From NCBI GenBank assembly GCA_905178155.1, contig CAJINV010000013.1, positions 2,848,158 through 2,912,157 on the forward strand: a DNA stretch of 64,000 nucleotides. Reading direction: 5' to 3'. Shown here piece by piece: positions 1 to 50,562 of the stretch (positions are counted from its first letter, which is position 1; each line of letters starts with the position of its first letter). The notes under the pieces were generated by a model, which saw nothing but the letters and a program-made list of their open reading frames with translations, was not told where the DNA came from and made no database searches. Made by a program: the position numbers and the translations under genes. The DNA comes from Amoebophrya sp. A120 (taxonomy: Eukaryota > Protista > Dinoflagellata).

Positions 1-3000
1 TAGTTTCCGCTGCGCTTCGGGTGGTTCGCGGATTTTCGGAGCTCGTCGTTTTCCGCTTCGAGGTAAAACAGTTTGTCGACCAGTTCCTGCAGCTTCGCGC
101 CCGAAGAAACGTCGACAGAACCGGTACTACTCCCCTTCGGACCTTTTTTGGTCGTTTCCAACGCTCTTAAATCTTCGGATTGTCTCTTGAACAGAATCTC
201 CAGCTTTTCCTTTTCGATCTTCAGTTTTGGGTAATCTTCGTTCTGCTTTTTCGTTAGCTCGAGCTGCTTCGCGAGAAGTTCGTTCTCTTTGCTCGTTTTG
301 TCCAGTTTCTGGAAGAATTCCGTCGCCGTCACCGAATTCGGCTCGCCGTCGACGTTGACCTTTACCATGGCGCCAACCTCTTGCAGTCTCTTCTCCAACT
401 TGATATTCACGGCGGACAGTTCGGTGATATCATGAAGAAAAATCCCCCCCATATCAAAACGGAAATCTGTGATGCAGATTTGTGGTCACCAATCAGCGTT
501 GTCATGCTAGAAGGGAAAAGATACGGACTGTAGTGCTGGGCGGCGTGGGAAGGCCTTGCATCTTCAGCATGACAGGAGGCAGCTGGAGGTGCGAAACAGC
601 ATGACAAATTGCTTGCAAACGAGGCCACAACTGCGGCTCTTGGTCTTCTAGCAATACAAGGCGATTTGTGTACTCGAATACAGCATCACAAGTTTCGTGC
701 TCGATATGGGGAGGGGGGATTTTTCCTTTTGATAGGCGAGTCGGGTGTGAAATCGCTGCTTTTCGTTCGCCCGGTCCTCCTCCGAGTCGAAGAGCTTCTG
801 CTTCAGCTCCTCGCCGTCTGTGATCACGGACAGTTTCGCCTGCCGCTCGGCGGACGCTTCTGTCAGAGGTGGTTTTTGGTCTGGTTGTTCTTTGGTGTCA
901 CTTTTTCCTGTCGTGGAACTCGAGGCTTTTTGTTCCTCTGCTGGAGTGGAGGAAGAGCTCTTCTCGTCTCTCTTCCCTTGTTCAACATCCACAGCTGCGG
1001 GAGTTGTGGAGGCGTCGGTCTTCTTCTCCCCGACGACGACCTCGGCTGGGTTAATGTCCGTGAACGCTCTCGGGTCTTCCCGCAATAAGTTCGAACTCAT
1101 CACCAAGTCGTGCTTTGTTTTCGCCGTGTAGGTTGCCTCGTCGTCGATGTACTTCGATAAGTATTTCAAACCGTCCTCCAGTTTATCCAGAAATACCTCG
1201 TTTTCCTTCTCCTGCTGTTCTTTCTTCTCCTTATCATCGTTCGGTTTTCTATCCCCTCGGCTGTTCTGCATCGTGGTCAAATCTGTCAACAGATTCTTCT
1301 GGAACCACTCGATCCTGCTCCGGAACAGCTTGTAGCGTTCCGCGTCCCGCTCGAAGATCCGCACGTCGTTCGCCAAATTTCCCGCCTTTTCGATATCGAC
1401 CGTGTGTCTATCATTCAGCTTCTCAATGATTTTTTTCAACTCCTTCGCCTCATTCTCCGAAAACTGCATTTTCTGCTGCATCTGCTCGGTCTTGGCATTC
1501 GCCTGGTCCTTCTCCTCCACGGCCGTTTCGATCTCCGCGCAGAGTGTCTTCATCCGCTTTTGGAAGATTTCCGTGCGGTCGGAAAGCTCCATCTCGAAGA
1601 TCTTTGTCGCTTCAGCGAGCTGCTTCTTCACATGTTCAAACTCCTGCACGGACACCTCCTTCTTGTGCGAAGAACTTGGAACGTGGGAGGAGGAAGTAGC
1701 TTTCGTATTTCCAGCAGATTTGCTACCCTTCTCCTTCCCCGCCCCGGCGAGGGCGCTGCTACTCGCCGACGGTGCCACGCTGGCTGCGCCTCCAGAAGTT
1801 GCAGCTGCGCTCAGCGCGAGCAACTCCTTCGCCAGTTCCTCGTTCTTGTGCTCCAAAACCACCACTCGCTCCACCAAATCCCGAACGCCGCGCCCGGCGT
1901 TGAGCGAGTCCACGTTCTGCGCAAAGGTCTTCGAACTGGCAGAGCTGCCGGAAACGGGGAGTTTCAAATATTCCAGGCCGGCGAGCTCCTCCTGCAGCCG
2001 CTTTTTCAAAATTTCGGTTCTGTCCAGATCGGATTTCAGGGCTTTGTTGTCTTTTTCTAACTCCTTCACCTTCGCGATTTCGATCAAATATCCCTTTTTC
2101 TCCTTTTCCAGCTGCTCCAGCTGTTGAATGACCGTCGCTAAAGACTGCTTCTGCTCCCCGTCGATCGTCTGAAACACGTCCATGGCCTTCAGTTTTTCGC
2201 TCAGACTCGCGTTATGGATTGCAAAAGTGTCTGGGTCCGGAAGATTCTAAACTTGTGATGCTGTCTCTGGATTCTAAAAAAATTTGCACTGCATGACCGG
2301 CAACAGAACTCCACCAGTTTGTGCTACCCGGAGAGGGCATTTCTCATGGGGTAGAGGCATCACAAAGGCCTCTAAAAATCTGTCATGCTGGAGCATGCAT
2401 CACCAACATCATGAGTCTTCCAAAATATGCATGACAAACCTGGCAAGCTTCCAGAACCAGACCCAGACATTTTTACATTTGATACGCGTTCGCATTGGAC
2501 AACTTCGTCACCTGTTCGACCGATCTCTGCCACTCGGTGGAGGTATCAAGTACAAAAGTGTCTGGGTCTGGAAGATTCCGGGATTTGTGATGCATATTTT
2601 CTACGATCCATGACGCACGTAATGCATGATCTAGCATCACAGATCTTTAGAGGGCTTCCTGATGCCTAGTCCGCATGAGAAATGCCCTCTCCGCGTAACA
2701 AAAACTGAACTCCTGTTGCTGGTCACGCAATACAGATTTTTTTGGAATCCAAAAACAGCATGACAAGTTGCAATCTTCCAGACCCAGACATTTTTGCAAT
2801 CCATAGGAGGCTTTGGTGTACAAATCTTCCATCTGCTGCAGCTTCTTCGCGAGCAACTATTACAGTGAAAAATACCCCCACCCCCACAGTTGCAAGAATT
2901 TGTGATGCGAAGTTTCCAAATGAAAACTTTTTGTCATGCATAAAGGGAGTATGAATCTTTCTGATGCAGAGTCCAGGCGTGTATCGCATCGCCAGCATGA

Positions 3001-6000
3001 TGAGCGCCGCTCTTGCTGGGGTCTTTTGCAATACAAATTTTCGCTATTCACGGTTACAAACCTGCGATGCTGATAGATGGAAGACGGCGAATGTTTCATT
3101 TGGAAAGGTTTGCAGTACAAATGCTCCCAAGTTCGGGGGTGGGGGCATTTTTCATTGTAATAGCAACTCCACTTCGTTCACATTCGCTGTCGACGTTGCG
3201 GCTTGCGCCGTCGCGGACAGCTGCGGAGCTGCGCCAGCAGAAGTCAGCCCGGCCGTCAGCGAGTTCGTCGGGAGGTAATTATCGGGGGAATCGGGCGAAC
3301 TCGCGTTCGCGGCGGAGTGGCTGCCCTCGAAGTTCGCGGGGTTCAGACCGCCCGGGTTGCTCTGGATCATGTTCACGATCTGCTGATCCTGCTCCCGCAC
3401 CTGCACTCTTAGTCTGTTATTCTCCGCCGACAGGCTGGTCACCGTCTGTTGCAGTGCCGCGACGGACTCCGTCGTGGGCTGCGCAGCGGTGGTGGTGGCA
3501 CTAACTGTCGGTGTGCTTGATGTCGAAGAGTCGATCACGATCGGGGGAGCTGCAGCAGCTGCTGTTACCCCAGCAGCAGCAGTAATACCTCCCGCGCCGC
3601 TTACTAGCGACGACACGAGACTACTGCTGGCCGCTGCCGCGGAAGAAGTAGCTCCTGCAGTACTTGCCCGTCCGCCCAGCAGGTTCTTCTGCGTTTCCGT
3701 GTCCAGAATGGCTTGCAACGCCGCCACCAGCTGGTCAAAAATCGTTTTCGGCACCGTCGTCGCCGCGCCAACAGCACCAACCTGCCCCGGCCGGTTGTAC
3801 ATGGACGACCCGACCATCCCCGCACCGACCACCCCGCCCGGCCGAATCATGCTGGTCGGACTCCCCGGACGACCGATCATCGAGGACTGCTGCGCGCGAA
3901 CCGCGACCGTAGCCTTGTCCTGCGATTCCTTCAGCGCTTTTGTGATTGAGGAGTGAAACTGATCCAGCCGCTGCTTGGTGTCCGCGATGGTTTTCTCCAA
4001 GTCGGTGATTTTCCTTCCAGATTCGGCAATGGAGCTATCCCCACGCGTGTTCGCGCGGTTCAGGGAGAGGTTTTCGTCTTCGAGTTTGCTCATTTTCAAC
4101 CGGAGTTCCTTTATCGCAAGAAAAAAGTGCTACAGTTACACACTGTGTTGCAAGACCGGCAACACAGATAACCTGTCTCATGCAGGAAATGCTTGGGAGC
4201 CTCGTTTCCTTCCTGTTTAGCCTTATGATTTTCGCATTACAAGTTTTCCCTCCCACACGAAGAAAATTTGTGATGCAGAAACTCCAACAAATGTGTAACT
4301 GTAACACTTTTTTCTCGTGATATCCTTGATCAACTCTTCATTGCTGTATCTTTCCTCCTCCAACTTCTTGATAATTTCCGCGGTTTGCGACTGCTGCGCG
4401 GAGGATGCTGTCGCAGTGGTTGCACCTGCCGCGGCAGACGACGTAGAAGCCGCAGGAGGCGTAGAAGTTGTAGGAGCACCACCTCCCTCAGCTACGTCAA
4501 CCGCCAGCATTCCCTGCTCCTTCGCGTCTTGACACAAGCGGCGGAGCTCCCTGAGCAAAGTTGCGGTCTCGAAGGAGGCGATGGAGACCTGGCCGTCGTA
4601 TTTGGACTTCAGTTTGTCCAATTTCAGCAGCAACTCCCGGGTGTTCGTACCCTTCTGGACCAACGCTGCGTTTTTCTCCACCAAATTCGCAATGGACTGG
4701 GACACCTTCTGCTGCTTCTGGCTCGCCTCCGCCTCGGCCAGATCGGTTTTCGACGCGTTGCGGTCTGGACTAGAGGACGCTGCGATGTCGTCGGGGTTGG
4801 TTGTTTCTGGGAGAAACTGTACGGTTGCGAGATGCTTCCGGATTTGAAACAAAACCCTGTTCACGTTCGCGTCGTCCAACTTCGCCTCCTTCTGTTGGTT
4901 CTCGATCAAGTCCCTCATGTCCTTCTGAAACTGCAACAATTTCCCGTTATTGTTTGTCACAACCGCATACGCCTCGCGGAACTGCTTCACCTTCTCCCGA
5001 AGCGACTGCAGCTCCTTCGCAGAAAGCGTAGTCGCGGCTTCGGCTGTTTGTCCCGCGGGTGGTGCTGTGCTGGGGTCCTTCACAGCCACATTCCCGGTGA
5101 CGATTTGATCCCGCAGGCGGGTCAACTCCTGCTGCTCCTCGCGGAGTCTGCGGTCGAGCGTGGAAATTTGGTCCTGGGCGACGGTCAGTTGCGTTCGGAG
5201 GGTGGTGACCTCGGTCGTGGAAGAAGAACTTGAAGAAGCTCCTGCTGTCCCGAGCACTCCGGATGTTGAGCTTGTCGCCCGCAGCCGCAGCTGCTGATTC
5301 TCCACCTCCAACTGCTGTACTCTGCTGGTCAAAGTTGCGAGTTGCGCACTATTACTAGCACCGGCAGCAGAAGTAGTCGTGCCAACAGCACTTCCACCGC
5401 GCTCCGCCGCTTCTCGGGTCAGTCTTGACTTCGTGACCTCCAGCTCGTAGACCTTTTCCTGTGTTTGTTTCAAGTCGTTTCGCAGCCTCGACTCCTCTTC
5501 GATAGAGAGTCCAGCGCGGGACGGGGACGCACTGCTCAAATCCCGCACTCGTCTCCGCAACGACTCTAATTCAACATTGTCCTGCTCCAACCTCCTTACC
5601 TTCGCCTGCAACGCCGTGAGCTCGTCTAATTGCGATTTCAACCGGTTGTTCTCCTGTTTCACAATCTGCAGCTCCTGATTCGCGGCGGCACTCGCCTGTG
5701 GCGACAGGCCCGATTGGAACGCAGAGCTGGAGGAAGCAGCTCCACCGATTGTCGGAGTAGACATCCCACCTAACGTGGGCGTGCCAAGCGAGGAAGTGAC
5801 GCCGATCTCCTGGGACATCTTCGAGAAGTCTAACGACGTCGCTTTTTTGCTGTTCATGTCCAACTCTTCCAACAACTTCTTGCATTCCTGCTGCAGCGCC
5901 TCCCTCGCGTCCAACGAGCCCATCCCCCGTTGCAGGAGTAAAAAGATCTGCCTGGCCCGCCTCGTCAACTGCTCGTACTCCTCGACCGTTTTTTCGCATC

Positions 6001-9000
6001 GCTGCTTCAACTTCCCGACCTGCAGGCGCAGCAGGTCGTTCTTCTGAGCCAGGCCGAAGTTGGAATTGGATGGGGAAGTGCCTCCTGGCTGTTGATTCAA
6101 CTTCACGATCAAATCGTCCCTCTCTCTCCGGATCCTAGTCACCGTGTCCTCCAAGTCGCGAATTCTGACAGCACTTTGATCACCGCTCAGTGGCTGCGCG
6201 CTAGGCACAGCGCTGCTGGAAGATGAAGCAGCAGTGGCACCACCAGCACTCCCACCGCGTTCGATCTTGCGCTTCAATCGCGCGTTTTCATTTTCCAAAT
6301 CCTCGAGCCGCTGCCGCATGCCCGTAATCGTAGTGGGCGAGCCGATAGTACCTGCCGAGCCGCCACTTATGCCAATTCCACCCCCGATTACGTTTGGCGA
6401 GCTCGTCATCCCGCCCGGCCGTTTTTTCACTTGCTCCAACTCGATTTCCAGGTCGTCGATCCGGTCTAGCAATCTTGCGATTCGCTTATCTTTCTCCACC
6501 ACCTCGTCGATTTTCCCGGTGACCGCCTTCTTCGCATCCTCCAACAGCGCTTTCAACTTCTGCTCCGAGTCTAACGACTGTCTATTCAGCATGGCGTTCG
6601 ACGCTTCTTTCGATTTCCCCGCGATCACTTCGTCCTGGAGGGTCAATAGCCTTCGTTTCATGTCTTCCAGCCGATCTTCGTACGTCCGATTCGTCTTCTT
6701 CAGCTGCCGGATCTCGTCCTCCATCTTGGACTCGTCTTTCTTCGCGAGCAATTTATCTGCTTCTTGCTCGATCTGCTCGGTTTTCCACTTCTCGAGCATC
6801 TGTTTCAGGTTCTTTATCTCGTTGTTCTTTTCCTTCAGCTGCTTGCGGTATCAAATGCAAACATGTCTGGGTCTGGAACTTGTCATGCTGTTTTTGGATT
6901 CTAGAAAAATAAAACTAGCATTGCACAAGCAGCAAGAGGGGTCCAGTTTGTGCTACGCAGACAGGGCATCTGTCATGCGGAAGGCGCATCAGGAAGCTCT
7001 CTAAAAGTCTCTGATGCTAGGTCATGCATTACAGGCTTTATGGGTCATGGAAAATCTGCAAGACAAGTCTTACATCCTTCTAGACCCAGACATTTTTGCA
7101 TTTGATATGCGGCAAATCTGCACAATCCGCGCCAGATTGCTCGCCTCGTAATTCTTCTCCGACTGCTCCAGCTTCTGGTCCATGGCTTTCCGCTCGTGCT
7201 GGTACAGTTCCTGCTCGCGGTGGAGCTGCGCGATTTTCTCCTTCAACGTGTACAATTCGCTGTCCTTGCTCTGGATCGCGGACTGGAGTTTCTCGTGCTC
7301 GGTTTGGTGCTTTTCCAGCAGATTTCCATGTTCCTTGATCACCTTCAACGCCGTGTCGCTGCTGTTTTGCTCCCCTCTGCCAGATCCCAGAGGACCGCTG
7401 TTGTTTGTAGTTCCGCCACCAATCCGCGCGCTGCTCGCACCAGACGACTGCTCTCGCAAATTCCGCACGTTCAGTTGGGTTTCCAACGCGATCAAATTCG
7501 TTTTCAACTCGTTCACCTCCTGTTGGTGGTACCCTCGGTCCTCCTTGATTTTGATCTGCAGTTCCTGTATCTGTTTCTCCCGGGCGGAAAGTTGTTCCTC
7601 TTTTTGATCAATCACGGATTGCAGCAAGTTCACGCTCTGCTTCGCCGCTTCCCCGACCTTTTTCACCTCCTCGTCCTGTTCCCGCAACAGTTCCTGCCTT
7701 AACTTCTGCGCCGCGTCATCCCCCAAGTTTGCCTGCAGTAATTTCAGCTGAATCTCGGAATTTTTCAGTTTTCGCGAAACCGTGTCCAGCTGGAGGTTGA
7801 ACTTCTCCTCCTGGTGTTTCAGATCCTCCTTCAAAGACTCGTTCTCCTGCGATTTCTTCTGCAGCTTGTCCAAAATGTCCTCGATGCCCGACTGCAGCGA
7901 CCACTTCTGCCGCATGGAACTGCGGAGGTTCTGCGAGTCGGACACGTTCTGCCTCGACGAGAGATTGCCTGCTGGTGCTTGTTCCGTAGACTTGTTCAAC
8001 AGTTGCATGGCGGCAGGTCTGTATTGTAAGTTAAGCAGCATCATAATGAGGTTTTTAATAGAAAATCTTGTCATGCGAAAACAACGATGAACCATCAAAA
8101 TTTGTCATGCGAAAAAACCCTACAAATTTTTACCTGTTGTCCTGTATTGCCATCATCACTTCCTGTCCTTCCCGCAATTTCAGCCGCCATCTCTCCTCTT
8201 CCTGCTGCATCTTGACCTCAAAGTGCGCGTTCTGCTTCTGTAATTGCTCGATCGTGTGTTCCTTGGCGTCGTTCGATCGGTACAACTGATCCAGCTGCTC
8301 GGCCAACGAGTCCGCCTTCCGTTGGTTGCGCAACGCCTGGAGTCGTGCGTCGGACAGCTTCGTCGCTAATTGCATCACTTTTCTCCTAGACTCCACCAAC
8401 TCCGCCGTGTGGTCTATGAAACCAGCTCCTGTAGAAGTACTCGGCTGCTGTTGCTGTGCGCCGGACACAGTACTAGAGCCATCCGCCAATGCCGCTGGTT
8501 TGATGCTGCTATCCCCCTTCGCGTTCACACCGGCAAACAGGTCGTTCTTCAAGTCCGACAACAGTTCCTGTCCCTGCCGCGCTTGCTCCTTTGCCTCGTC
8601 GAGTTGGGTCAAAAGTACAGACTTGGATTTTCGAACCGTTTTCAAATCTTCCTCCAACTCGGATTTCCTCTTCGAAATTTCCTCCACTTGGTTCGTCAAA
8701 GAGTAGATTTTTTCCACGGAGAAACTGTTTTTCGCCGACAAGTCTTGCCGCAACTTGTCGTTTTCCAGCAGCGTTTCCGCCAGTTTTTCTCTTAATTCGC
8801 TCAATTCCACCTCCTTTTTCGCCTTCGTTTCTTCAAAATTACTCGTCAGAGTTAATTCCTCTTTCCTCACCTCCTTCAATTCGTTCGAAACGATCGACAG
8901 TTCCCGGTTCGCAAAGCTTCGTTCCCACTGCGCTAGCAGCAGTTTGTACTGCGTCTTCCCCACGTTCAACTCTAAATCATCAGACGCCTGCAACATCCGG

Positions 9001-12000
9001 ATCGTCTCCTGCAAGTGCTTCTTCTCCTCCTGCCGTCGTTTGATCACCCGCTCCAAGTTCTCCGACTGCTTTGCGCACACCTGCAGAATCCCGTTCTTCT
9101 GCGTCAGTTGGATCTTGAGCTGCTCGTTTTCGAACAAAACGGACTCGGCGAGCTTCAATTTCGGCTCGACCTCCTGCAAGGTGATGGTGCCCGCGAGCTT
9201 GATCTCCGTGTTCGCCCGTAACTGTCGTTCTTCGTGCAGCTCCTTCTCCAGCCGGAGGGTCAAATTTTCCAAATCCTGCACCTGCTTCGTCAGCTCCTTT
9301 TGTGTGTTGATTTTGGACTTCAGCTCCATCTCCAGAACCCCCGACCTGCGGTTCGCCGCTGCCATGCGCCACTCCGCAATCTGCGCAGCCATCTGCGTGT
9401 TGGAGGCCTGGGGTTTGGTGTCGAACCTGGACGAGGCGCTGTATTGTTGCTGGACTACTACTTGCTGCGGGATACTGTTGTTCTCTTCTGGGTAAAAGAG
9501 AAATTGCTGCGGCATCTGGTTCTGCCCAGAACCTGAACCAATACCAGAAGACGCGTCATAAGAACTACCTTGTTGCATGTTAGAAACGACCGTTCCTGGC
9601 ATTGGCGGGTTGAACTCGTCGTCTTCGGTTAGCAGCATCCTGCTGGCGTTCTGGAACTGCTTTTTGCACTTGGTCACAAAGTCCTGGTAGTTTACCGTGG
9701 CGATGTGCAGCAGCTTCTGCCGCACCGGTAAGTGGTCGTACTGCTGTTGCTGCATCACTTGCTGCGCGCTCGTTTCGTCGTAGCCGCACCAAGCTGCCAC
9801 CTTCTGCAGCTCTTCCGCATTCGCCAAGGCCTCGTGCGTGTTTTCCTCGAAAAACGCCGGGAGGCCGAAGGTTTTGAACACTTGGAAGATGTCCCCGAGC
9901 TTTACGAATTGACTGTTGTTCTGGAACACATGGAGCATCTTGAAGAAATTCTGCTCCTGCTGCGGCGGCACGCGCTGTTTCACCGCCGCCCAAAAGAGGT
10001 CCTCGCCGGACTTTTTCTGCAGGCCAAACAGGCGAAGCTTCGAAACAAAGGCCAGGAGGGAAACCTGTTCATAGTGGGGTTCGACCCTATCACTTCAATG
10101 TATGCCAATGCCTTCATTCGATGTGGCACAGTCGTGACAGACGAAGAAGCTTCATTTTGCTGCAGCTGCTACATTCGAGAAGATAAAACACAAGAAAAAA
10201 TCTTTGGCGAAATCACCATCCTCACCTCGTTGTAAAACTTCTAGAAATGTTCATTGAATAACGCAAGAAATAAGCCAAATCCTAAAGTACCTTTTTCCCC
10301 GGCCAGGACACCGCCGCATTTTGTCCTCCTCCGCCCGCGTTCATGTTCACATCGGTTTCCCCGACGAACCCAGTACTAGTTGAGGCGCCAGTCCCCAGCT
10401 GGTTCGCGGTCATGGTCAAGTGCCCCAGATCGGCGTTCGACCCCCCGCAGGCTTTCGCGATGGTCTCCATGTCCTCGGGTGTCAACTCGAGCTGCCCGCC
10501 GATCGACGCGATGGAAGACTGCAGAAAGTCGTAGATCGCGGACAACGTCAAGAACCCGTCGTGGTCGGAGTTCAAAACCTTCAATTTGTCCTCCACTTTC
10601 TTCCACGGGGGAGAAATTTCACTACTGGTTTCGTCCGCAAACATGCCCTCCGTGTACCACTCGCCGTAGTGGGAAAATTTTCGTTGCAGCTGCTTCACGA
10701 GAGACCGGAACAAAAAGCATTCCTGCTTGAAGTTCCCGTCGAAGGACTCTAACTTGTTCCGCAGCGTCGTCAACTCGAAGTCCGCCTCGATTTGAATCTG
10801 CTCCAAATCCGCGCACTTTTCCTCCAGCGCGACGAGCTTTCGCAGTTTGTCTTCCCGCTCCGCGTTCAACACGTACAGGTCGGATTGTCGGCGGAGCAAA
10901 TCCATCTCGCGCTGGAGCAAGGTGGAGAGCTGCTTGTTCACCTTTTCGTACTCCTGCATCGGCACCATTTCCTGGATTTTTTTACTCGCGATAGACAAGC
11001 TGGATTCCGCCCGCTGCTTCCACAGAGAGAGTTGCTGCACTTTTTGCTTCAAGTAGTCCTCCGCCTCGGAGGCTTGCAGTTCAATCGTGTCTAAGATCTG
11101 CTTCGTCGCTTATCCTGAGTAAAAACGTCCCCACCCCCTAGCCAAGATGGGGGCTTTACTACACAAATCCGCAAGATGTGGGCGCTGCGCATGACAAATT
11201 GCTACTCGTAGCTTAGTCGTGTTCAGCCTGCTCAGTCGCATCACAAATCGCTCGCCTTGTCCTGATTCCAGCATGACAAAGAACTCATCTCAGATAGCAC
11301 TCAGATATGACCCTCATGGGGCCGCGCATGAGATACATCTCAAGTTAAAGTTTGTTGAATGTGCATGGCAACTATGGCGTGGGGACGTTTCGACTTGGGA
11401 TATCGCCTTGTAATCTTGGTCCAATGCCTGGTACTTCCGCGCCATCTTCGACTCGTTTTCCTCCAAGATCGCGGTCCGTTGCATCAACTTCACGAGCTTT
11501 TCCCGGTCCGATTCGGCTTGCGAGGAGTTTCCTCCGGTCGTGGAGGAGGAGTATTACAGGGAAAAATACCCCCGCCCCGGAATTTGCAAACGTTTCTCAT
11601 GCAAAGTTTCCAAATGAAAGCCTTTTGTCTTGCATGAAAGGATCATGAGCGTTTCTAATCCAGAATCTAGGAGCGCGAGCGCAAGATATCTGCTGCGTAA
11701 CAGATCCGCCTGCTGTTGGGCTCCTTTGCAACATAAATTTGAGCGATTCAGCATAGAAAATTTGTGATGCTGATACAAGCAAGACGGGCAATATCTCCAT
11801 TGGAAAGGTTTGCAATACAAATGCTGCCAAGTGCGGGGGTGGGGGCATTTTTCATTGTAATAAGGAGAGCGTGGCCTTCAAGGATTTCACCTGCTGCTCC
11901 AGCGCGTTCGCGAGACTGACCTTCTCCGTCGCGTCCTTCTCGAGTTTGTCTTTTTCCTCCATCCACAAAGTCTTCTGCTTGAAAAAGTCGTTGTAAACCG

Positions 12001-15000
12001 CCTCGAAATATGAACTGCAAATATGTCTGGGTCTGGCAGAATGCAAACTTGTGGTGCGCATTTCAGAACACAGAAAAAGCTCTCATGCATAGGCTGCAAA
12101 AGTCGCCCACTTTCTGTCACCAAAGTCAGGGACTTGTCATGCGGATTCGGCATTGCGAACGCTTCTCGAAACCTGTGATGCTAGAGCTTCCATGCCAGAC
12201 CTTCTGCGTCATGCAAAAACAGCATGACTCTTCCAGACCCAGACATTTTTACATTTGATACGAAATTCGCCATCAGCTTCGACTCCTGCTTCAACTGCGT
12301 GTCTAAATCTCTCTTGTACAAGTCGTTCATTTATCAATTGCAAATATGTCTGGGTCTGGAAGGCGGCAACTTGTCATGGTAAATCTGAAGCATGCAAAAA
12401 TCTGTGTTGCATGAGAGCCAAAAGCTGTCCACTTTTGACCAAGTTGGAAGGGAGCTTCTCATGCAGGATAGGCATGGCAGAGACCTCGCAGAGTCTGTCA
12501 TGCTAAGTCCCGCATTCCAGACCTCATGGGTCATGGAAAATCTGCATGACAAGTTTACACTTTTCCAGACCCAGACATTTTTGCAATCCATATCATTTCG
12601 CTCAGGCGCGCGATCTCCTCCGACAGTTCCACAATCTGCACGTACAACTGCGCCACATCCCGGGGCTGGATCTGGTTCTGCTGCTGGCCGGGTAGTTGCT
12701 GCTGTCCAATCATGGGCTGCTGCTGCTCGCCACTCGACGACCCGCTGGCTTGCTTGCCGAGCAGCTTGGGCAAAATCTGGACGCCCTGGTTAAAGAGCTG
12801 CGAGTAGCCGGAGGGCGGCAGACCGGGGATCGAAGGCATCACCATGGCGGAAAGCTGGCTGGAGTGCGGCATCATGGCCGGCATCATCGGCGTCGGCATG
12901 GAAAACTGCGGCATCATCGGAGTCTGCATAACTGTTTTGATAAAGATTTTTGTGATTATAATTACTATACTGGTGGTAATGTAGTACAATGAGTCTCATC
13001 ACGACCCATGGTCGTGCTGTAGTAGAAGTAGTACTAACATTAAAAACACTGTAAGTAGTATACACGACATCCCCGGTCCCTGCATCGCGGCTGGTGTCAG
13101 CGCGGGGGTGAGCAGCTGCGGCATAATCACCGACTCCGCCGGCTCAGACGCGGCTGCGGCAGAGGTTTCCATGGCTTGCTTCTGCGCGTCTTTGGCGAGC
13201 TGTTTCAGGTTTAAGGTGGTTTTTGTGGAGGTACAACTGTCACTATCATGCAGACAAAAACTCGACCTCAGAAACTCCAGCAACCTGCTCACTGACGCGC
13301 CAGCGCAAACAGAGCGATAATAAATTTGTTGATCCACGACCTCAAGACTACTAATCGATGACAAGCGCATGTCCACCAGTTCTTGAAAATTCATCATATC
13401 CCATTTCCTGTACCTTTTCCTGCACTTCTTTCTCCTTTCTCGCCTCTTCCACCGCTTTCCTCGCCGACGCCAACCTGGTTTCGTCCTCCGTCATCTTGCC
13501 GCTGAGCGCCCGCGCCTTCCGCTCCGCCTCCTGCTTCGCCTTCTCCGCGTCGGACAGGCTTTTCTGGTCCTCTTCGCGCTTTTTCTGCTCCGACGCGAGC
13601 AGTTTCTCCTGCTCCTGCAGCTTTTTCTCCGTGTCCTCCAGCTTTTTCTTCTGTTCCTCCGCCTGCGCCCGCCGCAGACTGGCGGCCGCGCCCAGCAGCT
13701 TGCCGCCCGCGGCGGAGATCTTTTTCTTCCCGTCGGTCGTCGGCGTTTGCGCCTTCATATGGTCCGTCGTCGGCGACGTCTGCGTGCCAATCTGCTCGCG
13801 AACTTGCACGCCCTGCTGCATCTGCTGCTGGAACATGGCCAGTTGGTCTTGCTGCTGCTTCTGGATCGCGGCCAGCTGCTTCTGCAGTGCGGAGTCCTGT
13901 TCCGCCGTTTGTGGCCCCCCGGTCTTGTTGTTCCCCTTCATCATCCCCGCGAGGCCGCTCGCCATTTTCAGCATGGACGCCCCCGAAGATGCGGCACTGG
14001 TCTGCGGCACCGCGACCCCCGCACTCTGGGCAATTTGCTTCAGCTCCAAATTCTCCTTTTCGAGCAGCAGACACCGCTCTTTCAGCTGCGCCTGCTCCGT
14101 CACCTTGGACACCACGTCGTCCATTTTCCGGTCGACGTGCTGACTCAGCATGTCGCTCACCTGCTTGTCCTTCCGGGCAAGCTGGGACTCGAGTGCGTCC
14201 ACCTTTTTCCGCAATTCGCGGCTGTTGTCCGTCTCGGGCAGGTGCAGACTGCCCCGCCGCTATCCAGTGCAAAGGAATCGCACTTGTAGTTGTAATCGCA
14301 GTCTCATGCATGACAGACCTATGGTTTATTTGGGGCAAATCAACAGCGTTCTTTCTCTTGGTAAAATGAATTTGTATTGTAATTATACCCAAGCACGATA
14401 TACTTTTGCAATGCATAGACGCATGGTTTCCGCAATCTGCTCCAGCTGCAGCATCTGGTCCGGCTCCATACCGTTGAACAAAATGGATTTCTTGTGCTGT
14501 GTAAACACGTCCCCCCCCCAGACTTATTTTAATCAAAAGCATCTATCATGCCTAAAAATGTTTCTCATGTTGCGCATCCCCCACTACATGAGAGCCATTT
14601 TCTATCTAATGGAAATTTTGTGATGCTGGAGTCAGGACGTGGTAGCTGATTTTTGATGCTAAAACAACCGCGCCGAAGACAACTGTGCCAACCACGGAAG
14701 CAAGCCTCCGCAGGCAATAGTTGATTGGTGATGCGCCTGCACAACAACAAACTACCTCAAACAGCAAGGTGCTACATTACAAGCGATGTCCAAGCTTGTC
14801 ATGCGAAACAGAATCAACAAAGTCGCCATCTTGACTCTGCTAGGGTGGAGACGTGGTCGTCGTGTAGTTTTCTCCGGATACTTCTCACTCGCCAGCCCGG
14901 CCAGGGACCGGAGCTTCTATCCAAAAGAAAACTGTGTTAGTGTAACTTTCTTCGGCTGGCAGCATCACAAATTTGCTCTACATGACAGAGAAAACCTGTC

Positions 15001-18000
15001 ATGCGCGGCTTGTAAGAGAAAACACACATGAAAAGAGGACTTTATGGTTGTCTGGCAAGACAGCTGCAACTCTGTTGCATGTTCTGCATTACAGAGTTAC
15101 AATTACACAGTTTTTTCTTGCATAGCTTCATCTTCAACTGCAGTCGCTCGTCCTCCAGATCCAAAATCTCCTTTTCCAGCTATCAAAAGGAAAAATCCCC
15201 CCTCCCCATATCGAAATGGAAATCTGTGATGCGCGATTTGTGTACGCAAGTCGGCCTTGTGTTGCAGTAGAAGACTGCAGGCAGATGCAAAGCCGATGTA
15301 GGGGCGCTTTGGTGTAGGGACCTAGCAAGGCAGGCATATCCTCCGTTGTAGGCCATACAGCATTACAAATTGCCTGCAGAACGCGGCGGGGTTTTTGGAT
15401 TTGCTTTCTTGCAATACAGAGACGATTTGTGGTCTCAAATCAGCATCACAAATTTTCAGAAGTGTCCCGTTTTGGTCTGGGGAGGGGGGATTTTTCCTCG
15501 CAATACCAGCTGCTTCTGCATGGACACCGCCTTGCTCGCGGACACCTTTTCTTTCAACTTCACCTCCGACAGGTCGAGCAATTGGTCGCTGGGGATGTTG
15601 GACCACTGGCGCAACAGCGTGTTTTCGTACATGATATTACTCGCTTCGTTCAGATACGTGGACAGTTCCTGTTTTGTCTCCGACAGCTCCTGCTTCAGCT
15701 TCGTGTTTTGCAGCCGCATCTCGGTCATCTTCTTGTCCCAGTCAATATCCCGGAAAACAAAAAAGCAGGCAGGGCATATTGATATTTGTATAATGCAAAA
15801 ATATCAAGTTCAGCAGCAAAATCTGCTATGGGCGACCCCAACATAGCATGGCGTTTAGGACAACATGCAACGAAGATTTGAATTTGATTAGATTTTGTCT
15901 ATTTGCGTTTGCATGACATCAAATATGACATGCCTGTCTTTTTCTGAGGGATAGTCGAAAGCCTTGCCGGGCTCGTCGCCAGATAGGTGGTGGAGAAACT
16001 CTATCCTGAATAAAAACGTCCCGCCCACACCAGACTCATCAAGATGGGAGATCAGCTAGACAAATCAACCAGCTTTGGTTGTTTCGCATGCCAAGTTTGT
16101 CCTCGTAGTGTGGCCCTGTTTAGCTAGTTCAGCGGCATCACAGGTCTAGCATATCATGCTGGCTCTAGCATCAGAAATTGCAAAACACGAGGACTACTAG
16201 AAAATGCTTCTCATGGGCGGGCTCCGCATGAGCAACTCTTTTCGCATGCAGATTTGCATGGGGGCGTTTTTACTCAGAATAAACTCGGACTTCTGCTTTT
16301 CCAATTCGTGCAGCTTCTCATCCTTGTGCTGCAGCTCGGAACGGAGTTCCGCGATCATGGTCTCGAATTGCTGTTTCTCTTCCGATATGCATTGCAAATC
16401 TCGATCTCAGTCTAGAAGGTTGCGACTTCCTTGTGATCAACATGCTTTGTTTTTCGATAATTCTTTCTAAAAAAATCTCTTTTGTGTGACAGGCAAGAAG
16501 AGGAGTCTACTTTGTGCTACGCGGGAAGGGCGTTTCTCACGCGAGAGTAAAGGCATCAAGTACAACTGGCCCTCAAAAAATTATCTGTGATGCTAGGTAT
16601 ACAACATCACAGGCAACATCATGGACTGAGACTATGCATAAAGTGCATGACAAAGAACTTTGCGCGTTTCCAGACCACGACATATTTCCTTTGCGTATCC
16701 TGCTGAAATGGGTGGTTCTTTTCGTAGTGCTTAAACTGTTCGATTTTTTCGCCCAGCGAAGTCTCCAGCTTGTCGATATGGATTGTAAAAATGTCTGGGT
16801 CTGGAAGGTTGGAACTTGTAATGCTAGCTTTCCACACCTAGAAAATCTGTATTGCATAACCAACAAAAGTCGCAGCCTCTTTTGTCATGCAAAAACACAG
16901 TTTCTCATGCGGATTGCCTATGAGAAAGCGTTTTGAGAACTTGTCATGCCGGACTGCATTAGGAAGTGTTTTCATCATGCACATTGTAGCATCACAAGTT
17001 TCCACCCCCAGACATTTTTGCATTTCATACTCGATGCGATCGTACAAGTGCTCGATCTCCATATCCCGGTCGTGCACCATCGTCATCTATCAAATGTAAA
17101 AATGTCTGGGTCTGGAAGAATGCGAGATTTGTCATGCTGATCTGGCATGGCCCTTAAATCTGTATTGCGTGGCCACAAACAGCCTCTCTCGCCTGTCATG
17201 CAAAAACGCAGTTTCTCATGCGGAATACGCAGCACAGAAGCACGAAGCAACTTGTCATGCTTGGCGGCGCATTACATACAGTGCATTTGTTATTGACTGA
17301 CTTGCATCACAAGTTTCCAGACCCAGACATTTTTGCATTTCATATCATCAAGTCCTCTAGTGAACCCGAGTTGCTGCTCAAACCCGCGATTTTTCGCACC
17401 TCGTTGATCTCGTGCTCCAGGGAGGAGACTTTCGCAGCAAGGACCTGCGTATGCATTGCAAATATGTCAGTCTGGGTCTGAAAAACTGTTTATTCAAATT
17501 TCAGGCAACACAAGACAAATCTGTCACGCATGAACAGCAAATGCGGCTCAAAACTTGGCACCAAACGGTTAGGGGGGTGTCATGCGGATTAGGCATTGAG
17601 AAACTTTCTCAAGACGTTTGATGCTAGGACTTGCATGCCAGACTGACCTCCTGGGTCACGCAAGAGCAGCATGACAAGCATCTACACGCATCCAGACCCA
17701 GATGACTACATATTTGATGCATTTGTATTTGATACTGCGCCTCCTTCTCTTTCGCGGTCAGTTCCTCCTCCTTCTTCGTCATTACATCGTGCACGTGGTG
17801 ATCATACTCCGCCTCGAAACGGTGCGCCGCCTCTAATTGCACCGTTTTTTCCTCCAGTGTCGCTTTCAGGTTATCAGAGTGAAAAACTTCCCCTCCCCAT
17901 AGCAACACGGAAATCTGTGATGCGGGATCTGTGTACACAAATCCAATCTGTCTAGCAGTAGGGGACTGCAGGCAAATGCAGTGCCTGAGTAGGGGCGATT

Positions 18001-20567: not shown

Positions 20568-21770
20568 CGCCCAGCAAAATAAAGCTGCTGCGATTTATAT
20601 TATGCTTGCGAGCTCCTGTCACGAAACGCAGGAGGTGAAAAAGTGGATGAACTCGCTTTCACGACGACTCGAAGGCGTCAGCACCAGTCGAGGAGGACCT
20701 CGACAAGCAGGACCTCGACAAGCAGGACCTCGACCGCGCCGCGACGCCAGCGGAGGTCTCGGGCCGACATATTAGTATGTATTTGTTCAACAAGAACTTC
20801 TTCAACAATCGACATGAGTTCTCTTTTTTTGTGCTTCATTACGTCGATGAAATCAAAGCACCTAGAAGAAGAAGTGTAGTGTCAGTTTCAGCCTCGTATA
20901 CTTAATTTTCGTTCCTCTTCGTCCACAACATGGAGCCTTTTCCCTTCCTCCACGACATGGAGTTTGAGCTCGTCGCCCGGAACTGTAGTCTCTCCCTCGC
21001 CCCTCTAGCGGTAGTGAAGAGCTGCAGTTTTTGAACAAGCAAGCAAGTGGCTGACCAAATTTTTGAAGCGAAATTCACCTAGTTTGCGCAGTATTTTTTG
21101 AAAACACACCACTCCGGCTCCACCTCGATACAATTGATTCACATTTGCGCAGATTTTCGTGGTCCAAATGAACAAAAGAAGACTCGTTTTCCGCTGTTTT
21201 TACTTTTATGCCGCTCGTCCGCCATATGCAACTGAACAGAGGTAGAAGTGCTATCAAACCGAAGGAAAAAAATTTTTACAGCTCGGTGCGATATTCAGAT
21301 TTGCACTTTTCAGATGAATGTAGGTATGCGTAAACTTATTATATGAAAACAAATTCTTCTGAGGCGAGTGCCACGATCGCTGCTGGATGGCATCCGCATC
21401 AGCTTAAGATTGATAAAAAAAGAACAACAATAACCATGTGAACATCGGAGTAAGTAGTAATGTAGATGTATGTAAGAACTGAAAATATTAAGTAAGTAAT
21501 AGTAGATTTATGTACGGCGGCTGTTCTTCCCGAGTAGCGCTAGAACGTGAGTAGAAGGCAAAACCTTCACCCGGAAATTCACGTTTCCACGCGTACAATC
21601 AAGCAAACAAACATGCCAACAAGAAAAAAAAACGAGTGCCAAAACCATTACAACCAGGCCTAGCATTTATAATCTTCTTAGCACCAGTTTCATCCTAGGC
21701 AATCGCGTCAAAAATGCCGTGCATCAAGCATCTTCCTGCGCCCGTGCTTTGCTTCCTCCTTCACTGCTCC

Positions 21771-34564: not shown

Positions 34565-35008
34565 GGGGATGGGCCGACCGATGTCGCATCTACTCCCACC
34601 GATGGCGCACAGGAGACCGACGTTGCTGCTTAAGCACGCATTGGCATTGGTGGCCCACCTGTTTTCATAAAAAACAGATAGAAATTGTAGAGATGCACTA
34701 GTACACCACCACTGTAGTGATCAACTCAACTCCTATGACAATGACGACAGACCGCCACCGGCACGCACGAAAGAAAGCGACATTAATGTTGACATCTGCA
34801 GTAGAAGCACCGAGAAAGGCACTGTCTTCCGCAAAGCGAAGTTTCCGACTCGTTATCACACGAAGAACATTTTTTCCAGACAAGTGGTCGACCGGAATAA
34901 TTCTGCTAATATTTCGTCTTGTTCAACATCAAGTTCGGATCGCAGCTTCGGCTGATAAGTTGGCACGATCGCTATTCCACTAAGTACTTAGGGTCGCAGT
35001 GTTCACGC

Positions 35009-38000
35009 TCAGATCTTGTCTCGCAGAGTGGATGCTCGCACACCCAAGAGCCTCAGTTCCAATTTCTTCTCTCCGACCGCGGGCAAAAATGCTCCTCCCC
35101 CGGTGCTGCTACTTCCACCGGCGAACAATCCGGTCAAGGCCGAAACCGCCTTACTGTTCTCCAGCGAGGGGGCAAAGAACTTTTCCAGAAACAGCGCCCT
35201 CGCGGTCTCCCGGATCTTCTCCGCCGCGTCTGTAAACTCTGCCAAAGTTTTCGACCGCTGCTCCACCTGAAAGTTGGTCCGCTTGATCTTCACCGTGATG
35301 CACTTTGCCTCCTTTTTTTTCGCAATCAGCTCTTTTGCAGTTTCGGCCGCTAGCTCTTCCAAAATCTCCAGTAGCTTCTCCTTGTTCGATGCGGTCGTGT
35401 TCTGGTCGGTTGCGGAACTATTTCTGCCCCCGATATTGTGACGAAAAATCCCCCCTCCCCATATTGAAAACGCATCCGTCTGGAAATTTGTGATGTCTGT
35501 CTTGCAAGAAGGCAAAGCTAGAGGGTCCGCCGCATTATGCAGGCGGTTTGTGGTGCTGTTGGGCTTACAGCGTGGACATTTGCCATGCTAGTCGCCTACG
35601 TCAAAACCTCGCGCCTCACGCTTGGCATACGCCTGCAATCCTCTCCAGCAAGACAGGCCGGATTTGTGTAGGCACATCCAGCGTCAGAAACTTCGTTTCG
35701 ATATGGGGAGGGGGGATTTTTCCCTCTGATACCCGAACGTGCTCTCGTGGCTGATGGACTGCTGCGGCTTTTCCTCGCGTACCTGGGGCAGCCCGTGACT
35801 GGCGAGCACCAGGAACTGCGCCGCCTTCTCGGTCATGGTGCCGAAAAGCAAGCCACGGTGGGTCCAGAGGTCCTGGATTTTGTGCAGCTCCAAGGCGTTC
35901 AAGATCTTTTCCGTCACCTTTCCCACCCCGGACAACTTCCGCACCGATTGCGCCCGCAGCCACTTCAGCATCTTGCGTTCCTCGGCGGGCACGGCGTACT
36001 GGCCGTTCGGTTTTTCCACGTCCGCGCCCATCTTGGCCAGCATGAAATTCTGCCCGGAAATGCCGGCGGACGCAGTCAGATGCAGCTGCGTCGCGATCTC
36101 CCCCCGGATCCTCCGCACCAGGTCACTCGCGTCCTATCACACAGAAAAAAACTGGCAGGTCATTTAATTTGTAATGCAAAAATAAATAGACAAAAAAAAA
36201 CGCATTGCATATCCTACATAGCCTGCTATGAGGCCTCCCATGACAGATTTTTCTGTGTATTTATTTTTGCATTACAAACATGCCCTGCAAGCTTTTTTCT
36301 GTGGGATACGTCCGCTAAGGTTTCCACACCCGCACCGTGGGACAGGTCCAGGTAAAACTCGTCCATCGACGGCACTTTGATAGCGTCCTCGGAGTATTGA
36401 AAGGAAACACGTTGTCCCACCAGCAGAAGACCGATGAAAAGCTTTCTTCGCAAATTTTTCACACGAAAGCTTTTCGTATTGTATGAAGAAAACAATACGG
36501 TGCGCTTTGTGTCAGAATCTCTGTTACAACGCAACTTCAACACGACGACAGCCATCGCTTACACAGGTGTGGCGCTGCGCAACACAGACTTTCGCTTCTT
36601 CGGGTTGAAAAGTTGTCGTGCTGACACGGACATGCAAGTGCAACGCGGCAACTGCTTCCATTGGGAAGTTTCGCAATACAAACACTTCCACATTGATTCA
36701 AGGGTGGGGGCAAGTTTCATTTTGATACGGAGAGAAATTGCTTCAAAATCTCGACCACCTGCTCCGACACTTTCTTGTACTTTTCCATGTTGTATGCATT
36801 GCGAATATGTCTGGTTCTGGAAGAATGCAAGGCCTCTCATGCACGAGGTTTCGCAGAAGGAGAAGCCGGGGCCGGAGGAAGGGAGAGCGCGAGCCTAGCA
36901 TCACAAGTTTTGAGCAGACTCCTCGATGCCTATTCTGCATGAGAAATGTTGCCGCTTCGTAACCGAAACTGGGCACTTTGGTTGGTTACGCAATACAGAT
37001 CTTTGTGTCGATCAGACCTGGCATGACAAACTCAAACCCTTCCAGAGCGACCCACACATGTTTGCAGTGAATACGTTGGGATGCACAAAGTGCAGCCCAA
37101 TATTTTGTCTTTTGCACAACTCCTTGCCGATGAAACCCGGCATGGCGGACCGCACGCCGTAGCGTCGGGCGACGTAGTTGCTGGTGGCAATCATGCCGAT
37201 GCCGCCCACCGCTACCGGTCTTTCGCGGAGGTCCGTGGGGTTCGCCTCGTCGTTCAGCGCGTCGCAATATCAATTGCAGATACGTCTGGGTCTCGAAAAC
37301 CTTGTGATGCGCGTTGCGGGTCACACAATCACAAAAATCTGTCTCGCATGACTTGCAAGAGATGCCCATTTTTGGCCGGGCTGAGAAATAAAACTCTCTC
37401 GTGCACCAGCATAGGCGTAATTATTGTCAAGGGGCTGCGGAAACTACGATGCCAAGGCCTGTAGTCCATATCCGGACAGACTGTGTGGAACAACTTGGAA
37501 GTAGTGCATGACAAGAAAGATCGCTATCTTCCAGACCCGGTTACTTGTATTTGCACTTGATACGCGAATCTCTACGGCGGCATAGAACATGTCCATATCC
37601 ATCACGGCGCAAAACTTTTTTTCCGCAGCTGTACCACTTGAGTTGTTTTTCCCGACGAGGCCACCGCCGCTGCCCGCTGCGCCGGTGCTGGAGTTTGTAT
37701 TGCTACTGTCCAGCAGCAACCTCTCGAGCATGGCGTTTTGCTTGAGAAAATTCTCCAAAAAGCTATCCGCTTCCCGCTGGAACTTTTGCAGCCGCGGAAG
37801 CTTCTGGTTCAGCAGCAAGTCCTCCACGCGCCGGATCTTCGCCGGCTTATTGTAGTCCTGCTTGTGGCTGCTGGTACTACTAGTTGTGCTGTCGGCGTTG
37901 AGCACAAAGTTGTCCGGGTGGTTTTTCAGTTCCGCTTTCAACTCACTTGCCAGCTGCACCTTTTTCTTCACCAACTCGTCCGATTTTGCGTCCAAAATCA

Positions 38001-49051: not shown

Positions 49052-50562
49052 TCACATCTTCCCTTTGAGCGGCCCTGACATGACTTCACCGGGTTCCGGT
49101 CCCGCAACGTATTTCACCGAAACAGAATTGACGCAGTGTCTTTCGCTATCCGCGCCCATTTCGCCGTAAAATACATGTCCTAAGTGCCCGTCGCACCGCT
49201 TGCAAAGAATTTCCGTGCGGACCATACCTGTGGTTTTCGGTTCAATTTCTGCTCAAAAATAATTTCGACACACGGAGGAACGATCAAAAAGTCGCATGCT
49301 GGCACTGCTGAAAGAATATGATTTTTCCATTTTTTTACATCTTTACATTTTCTCACTGCAACTGCAAGTGCAAAATTTCTCGCGCGCTGTAGAGACGTGA
49401 AGCAGCATCGTAAGTACCGTGTGACCGGTCCTCGATATAGGCAATGTGGGAGCCGTTTGCCGCCTTGCTGTGGTAGCAGTCCTTGTAGGCTGGCCACCCG
49501 CACCCGCTGTTGAATTTGGCCTGGTAGCTGTAGAGCGGAAACCCGCAGGCGCGGCAGCAGTAGTAGCCCTCCTTGGGATAATGCTTGTCGTACTCCCCAG
49601 TGCCCGCCCGCTCTATCCTGAGTAAAAACGTACCCACGCCAGAGTTGTAATGCAGATTTGCAAAGACAGGAAGACTTGTAATGCGCATCCCCATGAGAGC
49701 CATTTCCAATCGTGTTTTGGAATTTGTGATGCTGTGAACAGGATGAGTAGCTGGATTTGTGATGCGGCTGCACTTGCTAACCTGCACTACACTGCAGAGC
49801 GCAACTTGTCATGCGTGACTCACAAAACTCCTAGGTCTGTGTTGCAAAATCCCCATCCTGACTCTGGTGTGGGTACGTTTTTACTCAGGATACGCTCCGT
49901 GCCCTTGTTTCGCAACACGTCGTACTCCTTCGCGTTCAATATCGTCTTCTATAACAGTGCACAACTCCCCCTCCCCCTCATTTGTATAGCATGAACGGCA
50001 AAAATACAAGCATTAGCAAGACTGCAGGTTTTGCATGACAAATTTGCACTGGAGTGTAGTGCTATTTGGGCCGCTACCAGAACTTGTCATGCGAAAAGTG
50101 CCAAGAGGCACCAAAGGGAGGACTTGGTATTTTGCATGACAAATGAGGGCGAGGGGGAGTTGTGCACTGTCATATCTTCCACTCGCCCTCCGATTTCACC
50201 ACTTTTTCCATCTTGCCACCACTTGTTGCCTGTCCCAGCTGAACTGTGTTTTGATCGCTTGTTTCTTCTCCCGTGCTGCTGAAAAAGCTCCGTCGAACGA
50301 CCGAGGCACTCTGCGGCTGGTGACCAACGTCGAAAAACAGCAAGGCGGAGGTAGTTCCGGCGCCTTCGAGCAGCGCCAGGGTCGTGTTGCCGCGACGGGG
50401 GAAGTTGCTTCGTTTAGTACCCGGAAAGGGTTTCGGCTGAATAAAAGTTCTACTGGGCGTCTGTCGTGCTCTGCTTGTCGTGCTGTCTTTAGATATGTTA
50501 TTGGTCTGGACAAAAGCGGCGCGGGAGGTTTGGCGAAGGTGGTGCCGCAGGACGGAGGACAT
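49052..50562 (-). CDS. msrB: Peptide-methionine (R)-S-oxide reductase MsrB, with a possible N-terminal targeting extension
   Basis: [75 protein letters not shown]; two introners and GT-AG intron 49228-49417. Confidence 0.95.
49614..49892. mobile_element. Introner, family 4
   Basis: 32-bp TIR with 1 mismatch; TSD CGCTC/CGCTC; interrupts the conserved GTERA motif. Confidence 0.95.
49950..50174. mobile_element. Introner, family 8 (TIR TATAACAGTGCACAACTCCCCCTC)
   Basis: TSD TCTTC/TCTTC; removal gives EWKTILN. Confidence 0.95.

Follow-up and report, generated by a model that had tools for sequence, protein, structure and literature searches.

Introners of the window and the word they share

The DNA analyzed here (the window) is a stretch of 64,000 nucleotides of the dinoflagellate Amoebophrya sp. 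A120 (assembly GCA_905178155.1, contig CAJINV010000013.1, positions 2,848,158 to 2,912,157), which holds a large host gene on the minus strand and dozens of introners, elements 157-388 bp in length which start with TAT, finish with ATA, and carry terminal inverted repeats (TIRs) of about 30 bp (Table 1). Introners of different families feature a common 9-bp word, TTGT(G/C/A)ATGC, set mostly in pairs about three helical turns apart and conserved within each family.

Forty-three elements, totaling 11,692 bp, were delimited in the window, 34 by the presence of TIRs and target site duplications (TSDs) alone, nine by hand around matches to the motif. The duplication measures 5 bp, being exact in 26 of the 43 elements and matching at four positions out of five in 11 more; exact duplications of 3, 4, 6, 7, 8 or 9 bp were found in none. 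No target-site preference of the elements was detected. Traits of miniature inverted-repeat transposable elements are present (TIR, TSD, short length, many copies, either orientation).

Additional elements were collected by scanning metagenome contigs (JACKZZ01...) with a terminal-repeat pattern. The 144 loci retrieved correspond to approximately 637 kb after merging of known overlaps, some overlap remaining, and, having been chosen by pattern, are enriched for family C0 by design. A motif-blind finder based on TIR and TSD identified in these loci 394 short elements, 372 after removal of duplicates. Elements from the window and the extra loci (415 in all) sort into 15 families of at least two members, plus 21 singletons. 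Five elements longer than 450 bp with good TIRs consist of ordinary motif-bearing introner ends around 200-700 bp of inserted DNA, both TIRs and TSD being intact; a candidate element of 3.5 kb appeared spurious. The C0 TIR pattern had no match in viral contigs.

All of the 30 family-consensus ends begin with TAT. The TAT-N5-7-A4-6 layout proposed for the TIRs in an earlier, sequence-only reading of this DNA holds in the slightly wider form TAT-N5-8-A4+ at 610 of 830 element ends, and TAT-N5-9-A3+ fits 730 of 830 (TAT being required by the finder); the C-rich tract said often to follow is less general, C4+ being found at just 186 of the 830. The layout is in line with the text of Farhat et al. 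(PMC7789003), according to which A120 introners carry inverted repeats made of TAT, seven looser bases and at least three A (TAT-N7-AAA), and are removed as non-canonical introns. In the same text the borders of A120 introners carry direct repeats of 3-5 nt, a definition which accommodates the 5-bp TSD seen here.

Strict matches to the word, both strands considered, number 70 in the 43 window elements (6.0 per kb), against a mean of 0.8 and a maximum of 4 in dinucleotide shuffles of the same DNA. None was found in 18.5 kb of exons (12,601 bp backed by RNA, 5,854 bp inferred from open reading frames), and three in 31,494 bp of unannotated window DNA. The 34 window elements detected without reference to the motif carry 58 matches, at least one in 25 of them; in the extra motif-blind set, 370 of 394 elements carry the strict motif (831 matches in 96 kb). 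The sequence-only reading, which had described the motif as common to several families and rare in exons, was right on both counts, and the eight sites it quoted proved exact to the letter, 32-48 bp from an element end. The fuller word is YTGT(G/C/A)(A/T)TGC, with information concentrated in some 10 core bp and in the A-rich DNA flanking them. The variable position excludes T (14 matches, vs. 674, 313 and 248 for the other bases). A palindromic octamer, TGCATGCA, reportedly an apicomplexan ApiAP2 site, was rejected as a candidate, because not enriched (6 in element DNA, 15 outside vs. 14.7 expected).

The families do not align as a single element. Once motifs are masked and ends trimmed, interiors of window elements score 19.2 between families vs. 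18.2 for the null, 5 of 766 pairs exceeding the 99th percentile of the null. The earlier description of the families as otherwise unrelated is correct for pairwise comparisons, less so at the consensus level, at which some families are linked. TIR positions 16-30 are strongly different between families and conserved within them. Co-variation of left and right TIRs is near chance in families C1, C2 and C5, and above chance in C0, C3 and C4, in which it can be explained by sub-family structure.

No paper on this introner motif, or on subterminal transposase-binding sites in introners, turned up in literature searches. Neither the internal word, with its spacing and helical phase, nor the splice register described below occurs in the portions of text covered of PMC7789003, PMC12130899, PMC9860276 and PMC12005148. 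The portions of PMC7789003 covered describe the terminal inverted repeat alone, make no mention of an internal motif, a spacing rule or a single 5-bp TSD, and consider a general transposase route ruled out. Set against these portions, elements and TAT-A-run layout had been described before, and what is new is the word common to element interiors, the way it is spaced and phased, and the register.

Placement, spacing and conservation of the sites

A site begins 30-56 bp from the tip at all 30 ends of the family consensuses, directed inward at 21 of them and outward only at nine. The motif had been said to lie typically inward at 30-50 bp, which is true for the majority of consensus ends, yet is not a rule. 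At the level of single copies, an inward site lies at 30-50 bp in 32 of 86 window ends (outward in 5), and a strict inward site in 371 of 744 ends of the extra set (outward in 96). The inward terminal pair is missing in six of the 15 families, and in C4 all six sites run in one direction.

Pairs of sites in the same direction, 31-33 bp apart, were found in 12 of the 15 families, vs. a mean of 4.9 and a maximum of nine when sites were placed at random and the best 3-bp window was allowed (5,000 runs). Three turns of B-DNA correspond to about 31.5 bp, and the paired sites therefore lie on one face of the duplex. Spacers within the pairs have no common sequence, their A+T content ranging from 29% to 86%. 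Pair intervals deviate by 3 bp or more from the mode in 41 of 538 cases, other intervals in 80 of 439 (0.077 vs. 0.119 per 32 bp). A lattice of 16-17 bp, suggested by early spacings, is inseparable from the 31-33 bp peak and is not claimed. Divergent motif pairs, with centers 34 bp apart, recur in the consensuses of C1, C3 and C11 (e.g. at 4234/4268, 14962/14996 and 27020/27054 in the window), and may represent a second rule of spacing.

The first inward site is found near 32, 42 or 53 bp from the tip, lying at 31-35 bp in 106 ends, at 39-45 bp in 281 and at 52-55 bp in 18, with 17 ends in the gaps between these intervals and 11 elsewhere (n=433, mostly C0). The helical-phase test suggested in the sequence-only reading, run on 14 family-level distances, gave R=0.74 at 10.5 bp with P=0.0004 (0.001 with a free period), both P values being optimistic, as links among families at the consensus level reduce the independent lineages to fewer than 15. 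Shifts of about one turn occur also within families, the site being found at 33 or 40-42 bp in C0, at 44 or 55 bp in C2.

In all 15 families, conservation is higher in the columns of the motif than in the remainder of the interior. The excess of conservation measures 0.115 (12 families), vs. 0.001±0.030, with a maximum of 0.105, for 200 permuted decoy motifs, and persists after removal of CpG. Private changes in seven families hit 434 of 12,143 core positions (3.6%) and 3,762 of 40,956 spacer positions (9.2%), a difference of about 2.5-fold, with ratios between 0.25 and 0.52 in each of the seven. The motif is thus under purifying selection within families. The ratio is alike in copies called as lying in coding DNA and in uncalled copies (0.39 and 0.38). 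The two copies of the TSD have diverged since insertion at 59 of 1,860 sites (372 x 5), or 3.2%, a figure obtained with a finder tolerating no more than one mismatch. The core is kept no better than DNA which drifted since insertion, a result fitting selection exerted during copying.

These data bear on the notion that the word is left over, without present function, from a single ancestral element or from duplications of an internal 32-bp unit. TAT..ATA ends and 5-bp TSDs are common to all families, several families show remote homology, and the array at 25.5 kb (Table 1) shows that such segments can amplify. Yet the scores of masked interiors between families are at the level of the null, the spacers of the pairs are unrelated, core changes are rarer than spacer changes in every family tested, and relatives differ by whole turns. 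Common descent without function is therefore very unlikely and largely refuted. Neither of the two outcomes which the sequence-only reading had named as fatal, lack of enrichment or alignment of all families as one ancestral element, was observed.

Host gene, removal from RNA and splice register

Removal of its 31 introns leaves the host gene with a single stop-free frame of 4,156 codons, the exons lacking the motif. The product is coiled-coil-like, exceeds 4,150 codons and extends past the window start; segments of the gene had no match at 1e-6 in a Pfam scan, nor did the window in an Rfam scan. At every joint among those listed (15 of 22), a contig from the presumed RNA run X1 skips the element and one TSD copy. 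The raw-read runs X9 and X10, also presumed to be RNA, contributed 20 and three partial reads, respectively; none of these runs is recorded as RNA.

The word might act in pre-mRNA, by binding a splicing factor or by lengthening a terminal hairpin, a possibility which takes in the second branch of the sequence-only reading, where the site was assigned to a factor defining these introns. About half of the families have complementary inward sites at their two ends, and introners are predicted to form hairpins in the text of PMC7789003. The orientation of the elements argues otherwise. A codon model assigned the host strand for 197 of the 415 elements, and orientation to the transcript is unbiased in every family (C0 42/40, C4 6/11, C1 8/13, C2 7/11), 221 motifs being sense and 195 antisense. 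As C4 sites run in one direction and C4 elements are inserted both ways, the RNA of a C4 intron shows either six words or just their complement. Of 117 C0 copies, 35 have variable bases which agree between the two terminal motifs (chance would give 55), and two have these motifs in exact register; six of the 15 families lack the inward pair. Among the host gene's 26 element introns, three (at 15746, 18893 and 19513) have no site at 12 bits and are still removed, the former two being skipped in RNA joints, removal of the latter keeping the frame open. Four of the five GT-AG introns of the gene also lack the motif. A phase of 10.5 bp, moreover, is a property of duplex DNA. With both orientations in transcripts and removal of motif-less elements, the splicing-signal reading fails, and a role in RNA must be rated as most improbable.

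Joints were informative for the splice register as well. Shifts were counted from the removal of left TSD plus element, TSD mismatches bracketing the cut site. The ranges allowed are 0 to 2 (element at 428), 0 to 4 (11111), 0 to 1 (14261), 1 to 5 (14493), -1 to 3 (15746), -1 to 1 (18468) and 1 to 4 (19513). All informative RNA joints, found between 424 and 19876, are compatible with a single register, and if one rule holds shift 1 alone fits, with two elements and a single contig behind the lower bound. The intron would then be N-UAU...AUA-NNNN, spanning from 1 nt before TAT to 4 nt past ATA. The five GT-AG introns of the host gene start with GTA, and TAT would consequently occupy positions +2 to +4, leaving +1 free. 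In the published annotation of A120 family 2, 6,681 of 9,716 copies begin with NT and 392 with TA, counts which aligner preference may shape. The text of Farhat et al. (PMC7789003) describes introner borders as variable or unknown, and U1 small nuclear RNA (snRNA) as undetected in these strains.

The GT-AG intron at 8019-8133 conforms to the introner register. The TSD supplies G and AG; no TIR is present, and a weak similarity to family C8 (109 bp) can be seen. It is likely, judging from these sequence features, a decayed introner turned canonical.

Table 1. Features of the window and enlarged introners of the extra loci (L, locus; distances in bp; families as numbered in the sequence-only reading are given in parentheses)
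Feature	Position	Strand	Remarks
Host gene	1..20570	-	31 introns here, 26 TAT..ATA elements and 5 GT-AG; RNA joints, open reading frame
Introner C2 (family 2)	428..734	.	TAT..ATA; 5-bp TSD with 1 mismatch; skipped by X1 contig; motifs 467, 499 (+, 32 apart), 567, 599 (-, 32 apart), 683 (-) with weaker partner 32 bp inward
Inward terminal motif CTGTGATGC	467..475	+	40 bp from left end
Inward terminal motif	683..691	-	44 bp from right end
Other C2 copies	15181-15505, 17872-18195, 35434-35731, 38722-39040, 39107-39427
Introner C0 (family 1)	2213..2484	.	Motifs 2253 (+), 2429 (-)
Other C0 copies	2544-2805 (opposite orientation), 6849-7107, 12009-12260, 12332-12592, 16386-16697, 16777-17029, 17088-17344, 17450-17734, 19184-19436, 27876-28124, 32818-33092, 36793-37073, 37268-37562
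Introner C9 (family 3)	2858..3162	.	Motifs 2900, 2931 (+, 31 apart)
Second C9 copy	11552-11862		Diverged relative at 36395-36727
Introner C3	4112..4322	.	Divergent pair 4234 (-), 4268 (+)
Other C3 copies	14918-15124, 18236-18444
GT-AG intron	8019..8133	-	Two perfect motifs 8068, 8102 (34 apart); 4-of-5 TSD in introner register
C1-like introner	14261..14417	.	TSD mismatch sets splice shift at most 1
Decayed C4-like introner	14493..14880	.	TSD mismatch sets splice shift at least 1
Motif-less introner (12 bits)	15746..15953	.	Skipped in RNA
Motif-less introner (12 bits)	18893..19076	.	Skipped in RNA
Decayed TAT..ATA element, no motif	19513..19875	.	Frame open after removal; RNA fixes right boundary only
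Nested inverted array of motif-bearing segments	25505..25890	.	Adjoins N gap 25915-26614 (700 N)
Six-element cluster	26770..28585	.	All with motifs; DNA with weak or no coding signal
Cluster members	26770-27098, 27164-27467, 27563-27841, 27876-28124, 28171-28347, 28362-28585
Introner C14 (family 7)	36135..36308	.	Motifs 36169 (+), 36269 (-)
Introner C4 (family 4)	49614..49892	.	Six same-direction sites at 32, 63, 111, 144, 193, 224 bp from left end
Other C4 copies	11111-11402, 16002-16281, 27563-27841
Introner C5 (family 8)	49950..50174	.	Motifs 50033 (-), 50084 (+), 50134 (-)
Enlarged introners	L065:11017-11988, L042:3862-4492, L041:571-1051, L021:10307-10763, L065:15919-16414		One insert is a simple-repeat run

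The nested array resembles C1 interiors and a short palindromic stretch at L008:947-1080. Within the six-element cluster, the element at 27876-28124 has no matching TSD (1 of 5). Other repeats noticed are a satellite at 45482-45800, formed by units of approximately 13 bp around the palindrome CTTAAG and unrelated to the motif, and, by eye, a non-introner repeat of about 150 bp in 29450-29600 and L008:1500-1660. A C-5 cytosine DNA methylase domain (PF00145) spans two adjacent frames at L012:2628-6083.

Candidate machinery and relation to known elements

The fixed spacing of 31-33 bp, the whole-turn steps, the selection within families and the lack of transcript bias lend support to the first branch of the sequence-only reading, an array of protein-binding sites on DNA comparable to the end sites of TnsB or MuA. 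That the word binds protein is what we infer from sequence. The words are probably sites with a role in mobilization, one shared protein machine likely copying all families. There is about an even chance that the DNA-binding agent is the DNA-binding domain of the transposase, and a distinctly smaller one that it is a host cofactor.

According to the mechanism proposed, a multimeric protein would bind sites on one helix face, three turns apart, and the bound multimer would grip the TAT tips for cutting. Each end would require one site 30-56 bp in, in either direction, and copies losing sites would cease to make copies, so that the motif would be conserved along the family without any host function. 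A staggered cut of the integrase type, made with no target preference, would yield the 5-bp duplication, the enzyme being likely a DDE transposase of integrase type, close to IS3EU/GingerRoot or to family 38 of A120, which is Ginger-like. Splicing would rely on other features: a relaxed 5' site would take its positions +2 to +4 from TAT, and the cut at the 3' end would fall 4 nt past ATA.

Tn7- and Mu-type elements share the 5-bp TSD of introners, but have TG..CA ends and sites of about 20 bp, the elements described here featuring TAT..ATA ends and core sites of about 10 bp. IS3EU/GingerRoot elements (PMC10045372, PMC12730594) resemble window introners in having, in the texts covered, TA..TA (TAY..RTA) termini and TIRs of about 30 bp. 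Their TSD is usually 6 bp, a length never found as an exact duplication in the window, and for this reason window elements are not filed there. Family 38 of A120, an 808-bp element with integrase-like homology, is listed by Gozashti et al. 2025 (PMC12130899) as "Ginger, 5-bp TSD, TA/TA termini"; window elements share both TSD length and termini, as compared by description only, and the family appears to be the best lead to the enzyme. Other A120 rows in the portion of the paper covered have lengths (about 107, 150, 209, 255, 278, 305 and 320 bp) matching families found here, most of the other A120 families being labeled "TIR DNA, Unknown".

In their arrangement the sites resemble the subterminal repeats of the hAT transposon Hermes, described in the text of PMC10368747 as many short sites in both orientations, asymmetric between ends and bound by the DNA-binding domain of the transposase. 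Hermes has a 4-bp site and an 8-bp target, whereas introners have a 9-bp site, a 5-bp TSD (8 bp in none of 43), and a fixed spacing of 31-33 bp common to families with different TIRs. With the TnsB arrays, with IHF, of Tn7-like elements and CRISPR-associated transposons, as described in the text of PMC13370975, introners share the presence of multiple sites at uneven distances in each end, a difference between left and right, and possibly a host bending factor; those arrays are bacterial, with 20-bp sites, while introner sites run through the whole element (110-390 bp). The arrangement thus seems to work like Hermes repeats or TnsB arrays, introners being members of neither group.

Copying based on RNA or single strands, in which the word would be a signal for a reverse transcriptase or a recombinase rather than for DDE cut-and-paste, might be considered given that no transposase is known in A120 (PMC7789003, text) and that some A120 introner families are labeled as non-LTR (LTR, long terminal repeat). 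The uniform 5-bp TSD, the TIRs, the absence of tails and of target preference, and insertion in both orientations fit instead an integrase-type staggered insertion into duplex DNA, and leave this route little probability.

An alternative carrying more weight, though unlikely, is that the pairs are bound by a protein of the host, either DNA-binding or of chromatin, and that the host needs them, e.g. for marking introns during transcription. Sites working in either orientation would suit such a protein, as would strict matches outside element-homologous DNA (88 in 551 kb vs. about 13 expected), some of which form pairs 31-34 bp apart. The two perfect sites of the decayed intron at 8019-8133, the core/spacer ratio of 0.41 in TSD-mismatched copies, and the undetected U1 snRNA (PMC7789003, text) point in the same direction. 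Conversely, three site-less elements are removed, two by the evidence of RNA joints, and four GT-AG introns have no site; changes in the core are as frequent as the differences arisen between TSD copies since insertion, the ratio does not vary between coding-called and uncalled copies, and several of the multi-match clusters found outside elements have TIR-like ends by eye. The matches outside elements include 59 single ones.

Some of these observations weigh also against the mobilization role preferred here, namely the excess of matches outside recognized elements, the two sites retained by the 8019-8133 intron after TIR decay, and the constancy of the ratio at about 0.4 in older copies, which host-level selection would give as well. 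To the same side belong the links among family consensuses, both in interiors (C2-C6, C5-C10, C4-C5) and in TIRs (C0-C12, C7-C10, plus weaker ones), families being not fully independent; the specificity of TIR positions 16-30, which could mean several enzymes and one host factor; the lack of an inward terminal site in C1 and C13; the first site of C11, off phase at 60 bp; and the phase test, borderline on the window alone (median P 0.04-0.09). No transposase or integrase family was detected by Pfam in 225 open reading frame segments of at least 200 aa from the window and the extra loci (of the 239 listed, 14 were left out as overlaps with other loci). No autonomous cognate element was found in the window or the 144 loci, together less than 1% of what a genome this large contains. 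No coding element was recovered, the five long ones carrying inserted DNA between ordinary ends. The result is in line with the text of Farhat et al. (PMC7789003), in which no transposase was found in A120 and the mobilization of 29,850 repeated introns, grouped in 1,954 families, was left open.

Tentatively, and at a confidence short of even, one may envisage that a single undescribed integrase-type machine (TA..TA termini, 5-bp TSD) moves most of the about 30,000 A120 introners through a code of 9-bp sites independent of family, spaced by three helical turns and in phase with the tip, TAT at the tip doubling as 5' splice positions +2 to +4, so that insertions in either orientation and at any sequence would be precise introns at birth. 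A site which is common to the families, selected and in helical phase is an argument for one machine serving many of them, and the motif may be used both as bait, in the form of DNA, for the protein still missing and as a guide in searches for the autonomous element. A single splice register makes the variable borders of introners a testable rule, and suggests a route by which insertion at any sequence may become a clean intron in a genome for which U1 snRNA went undetected.

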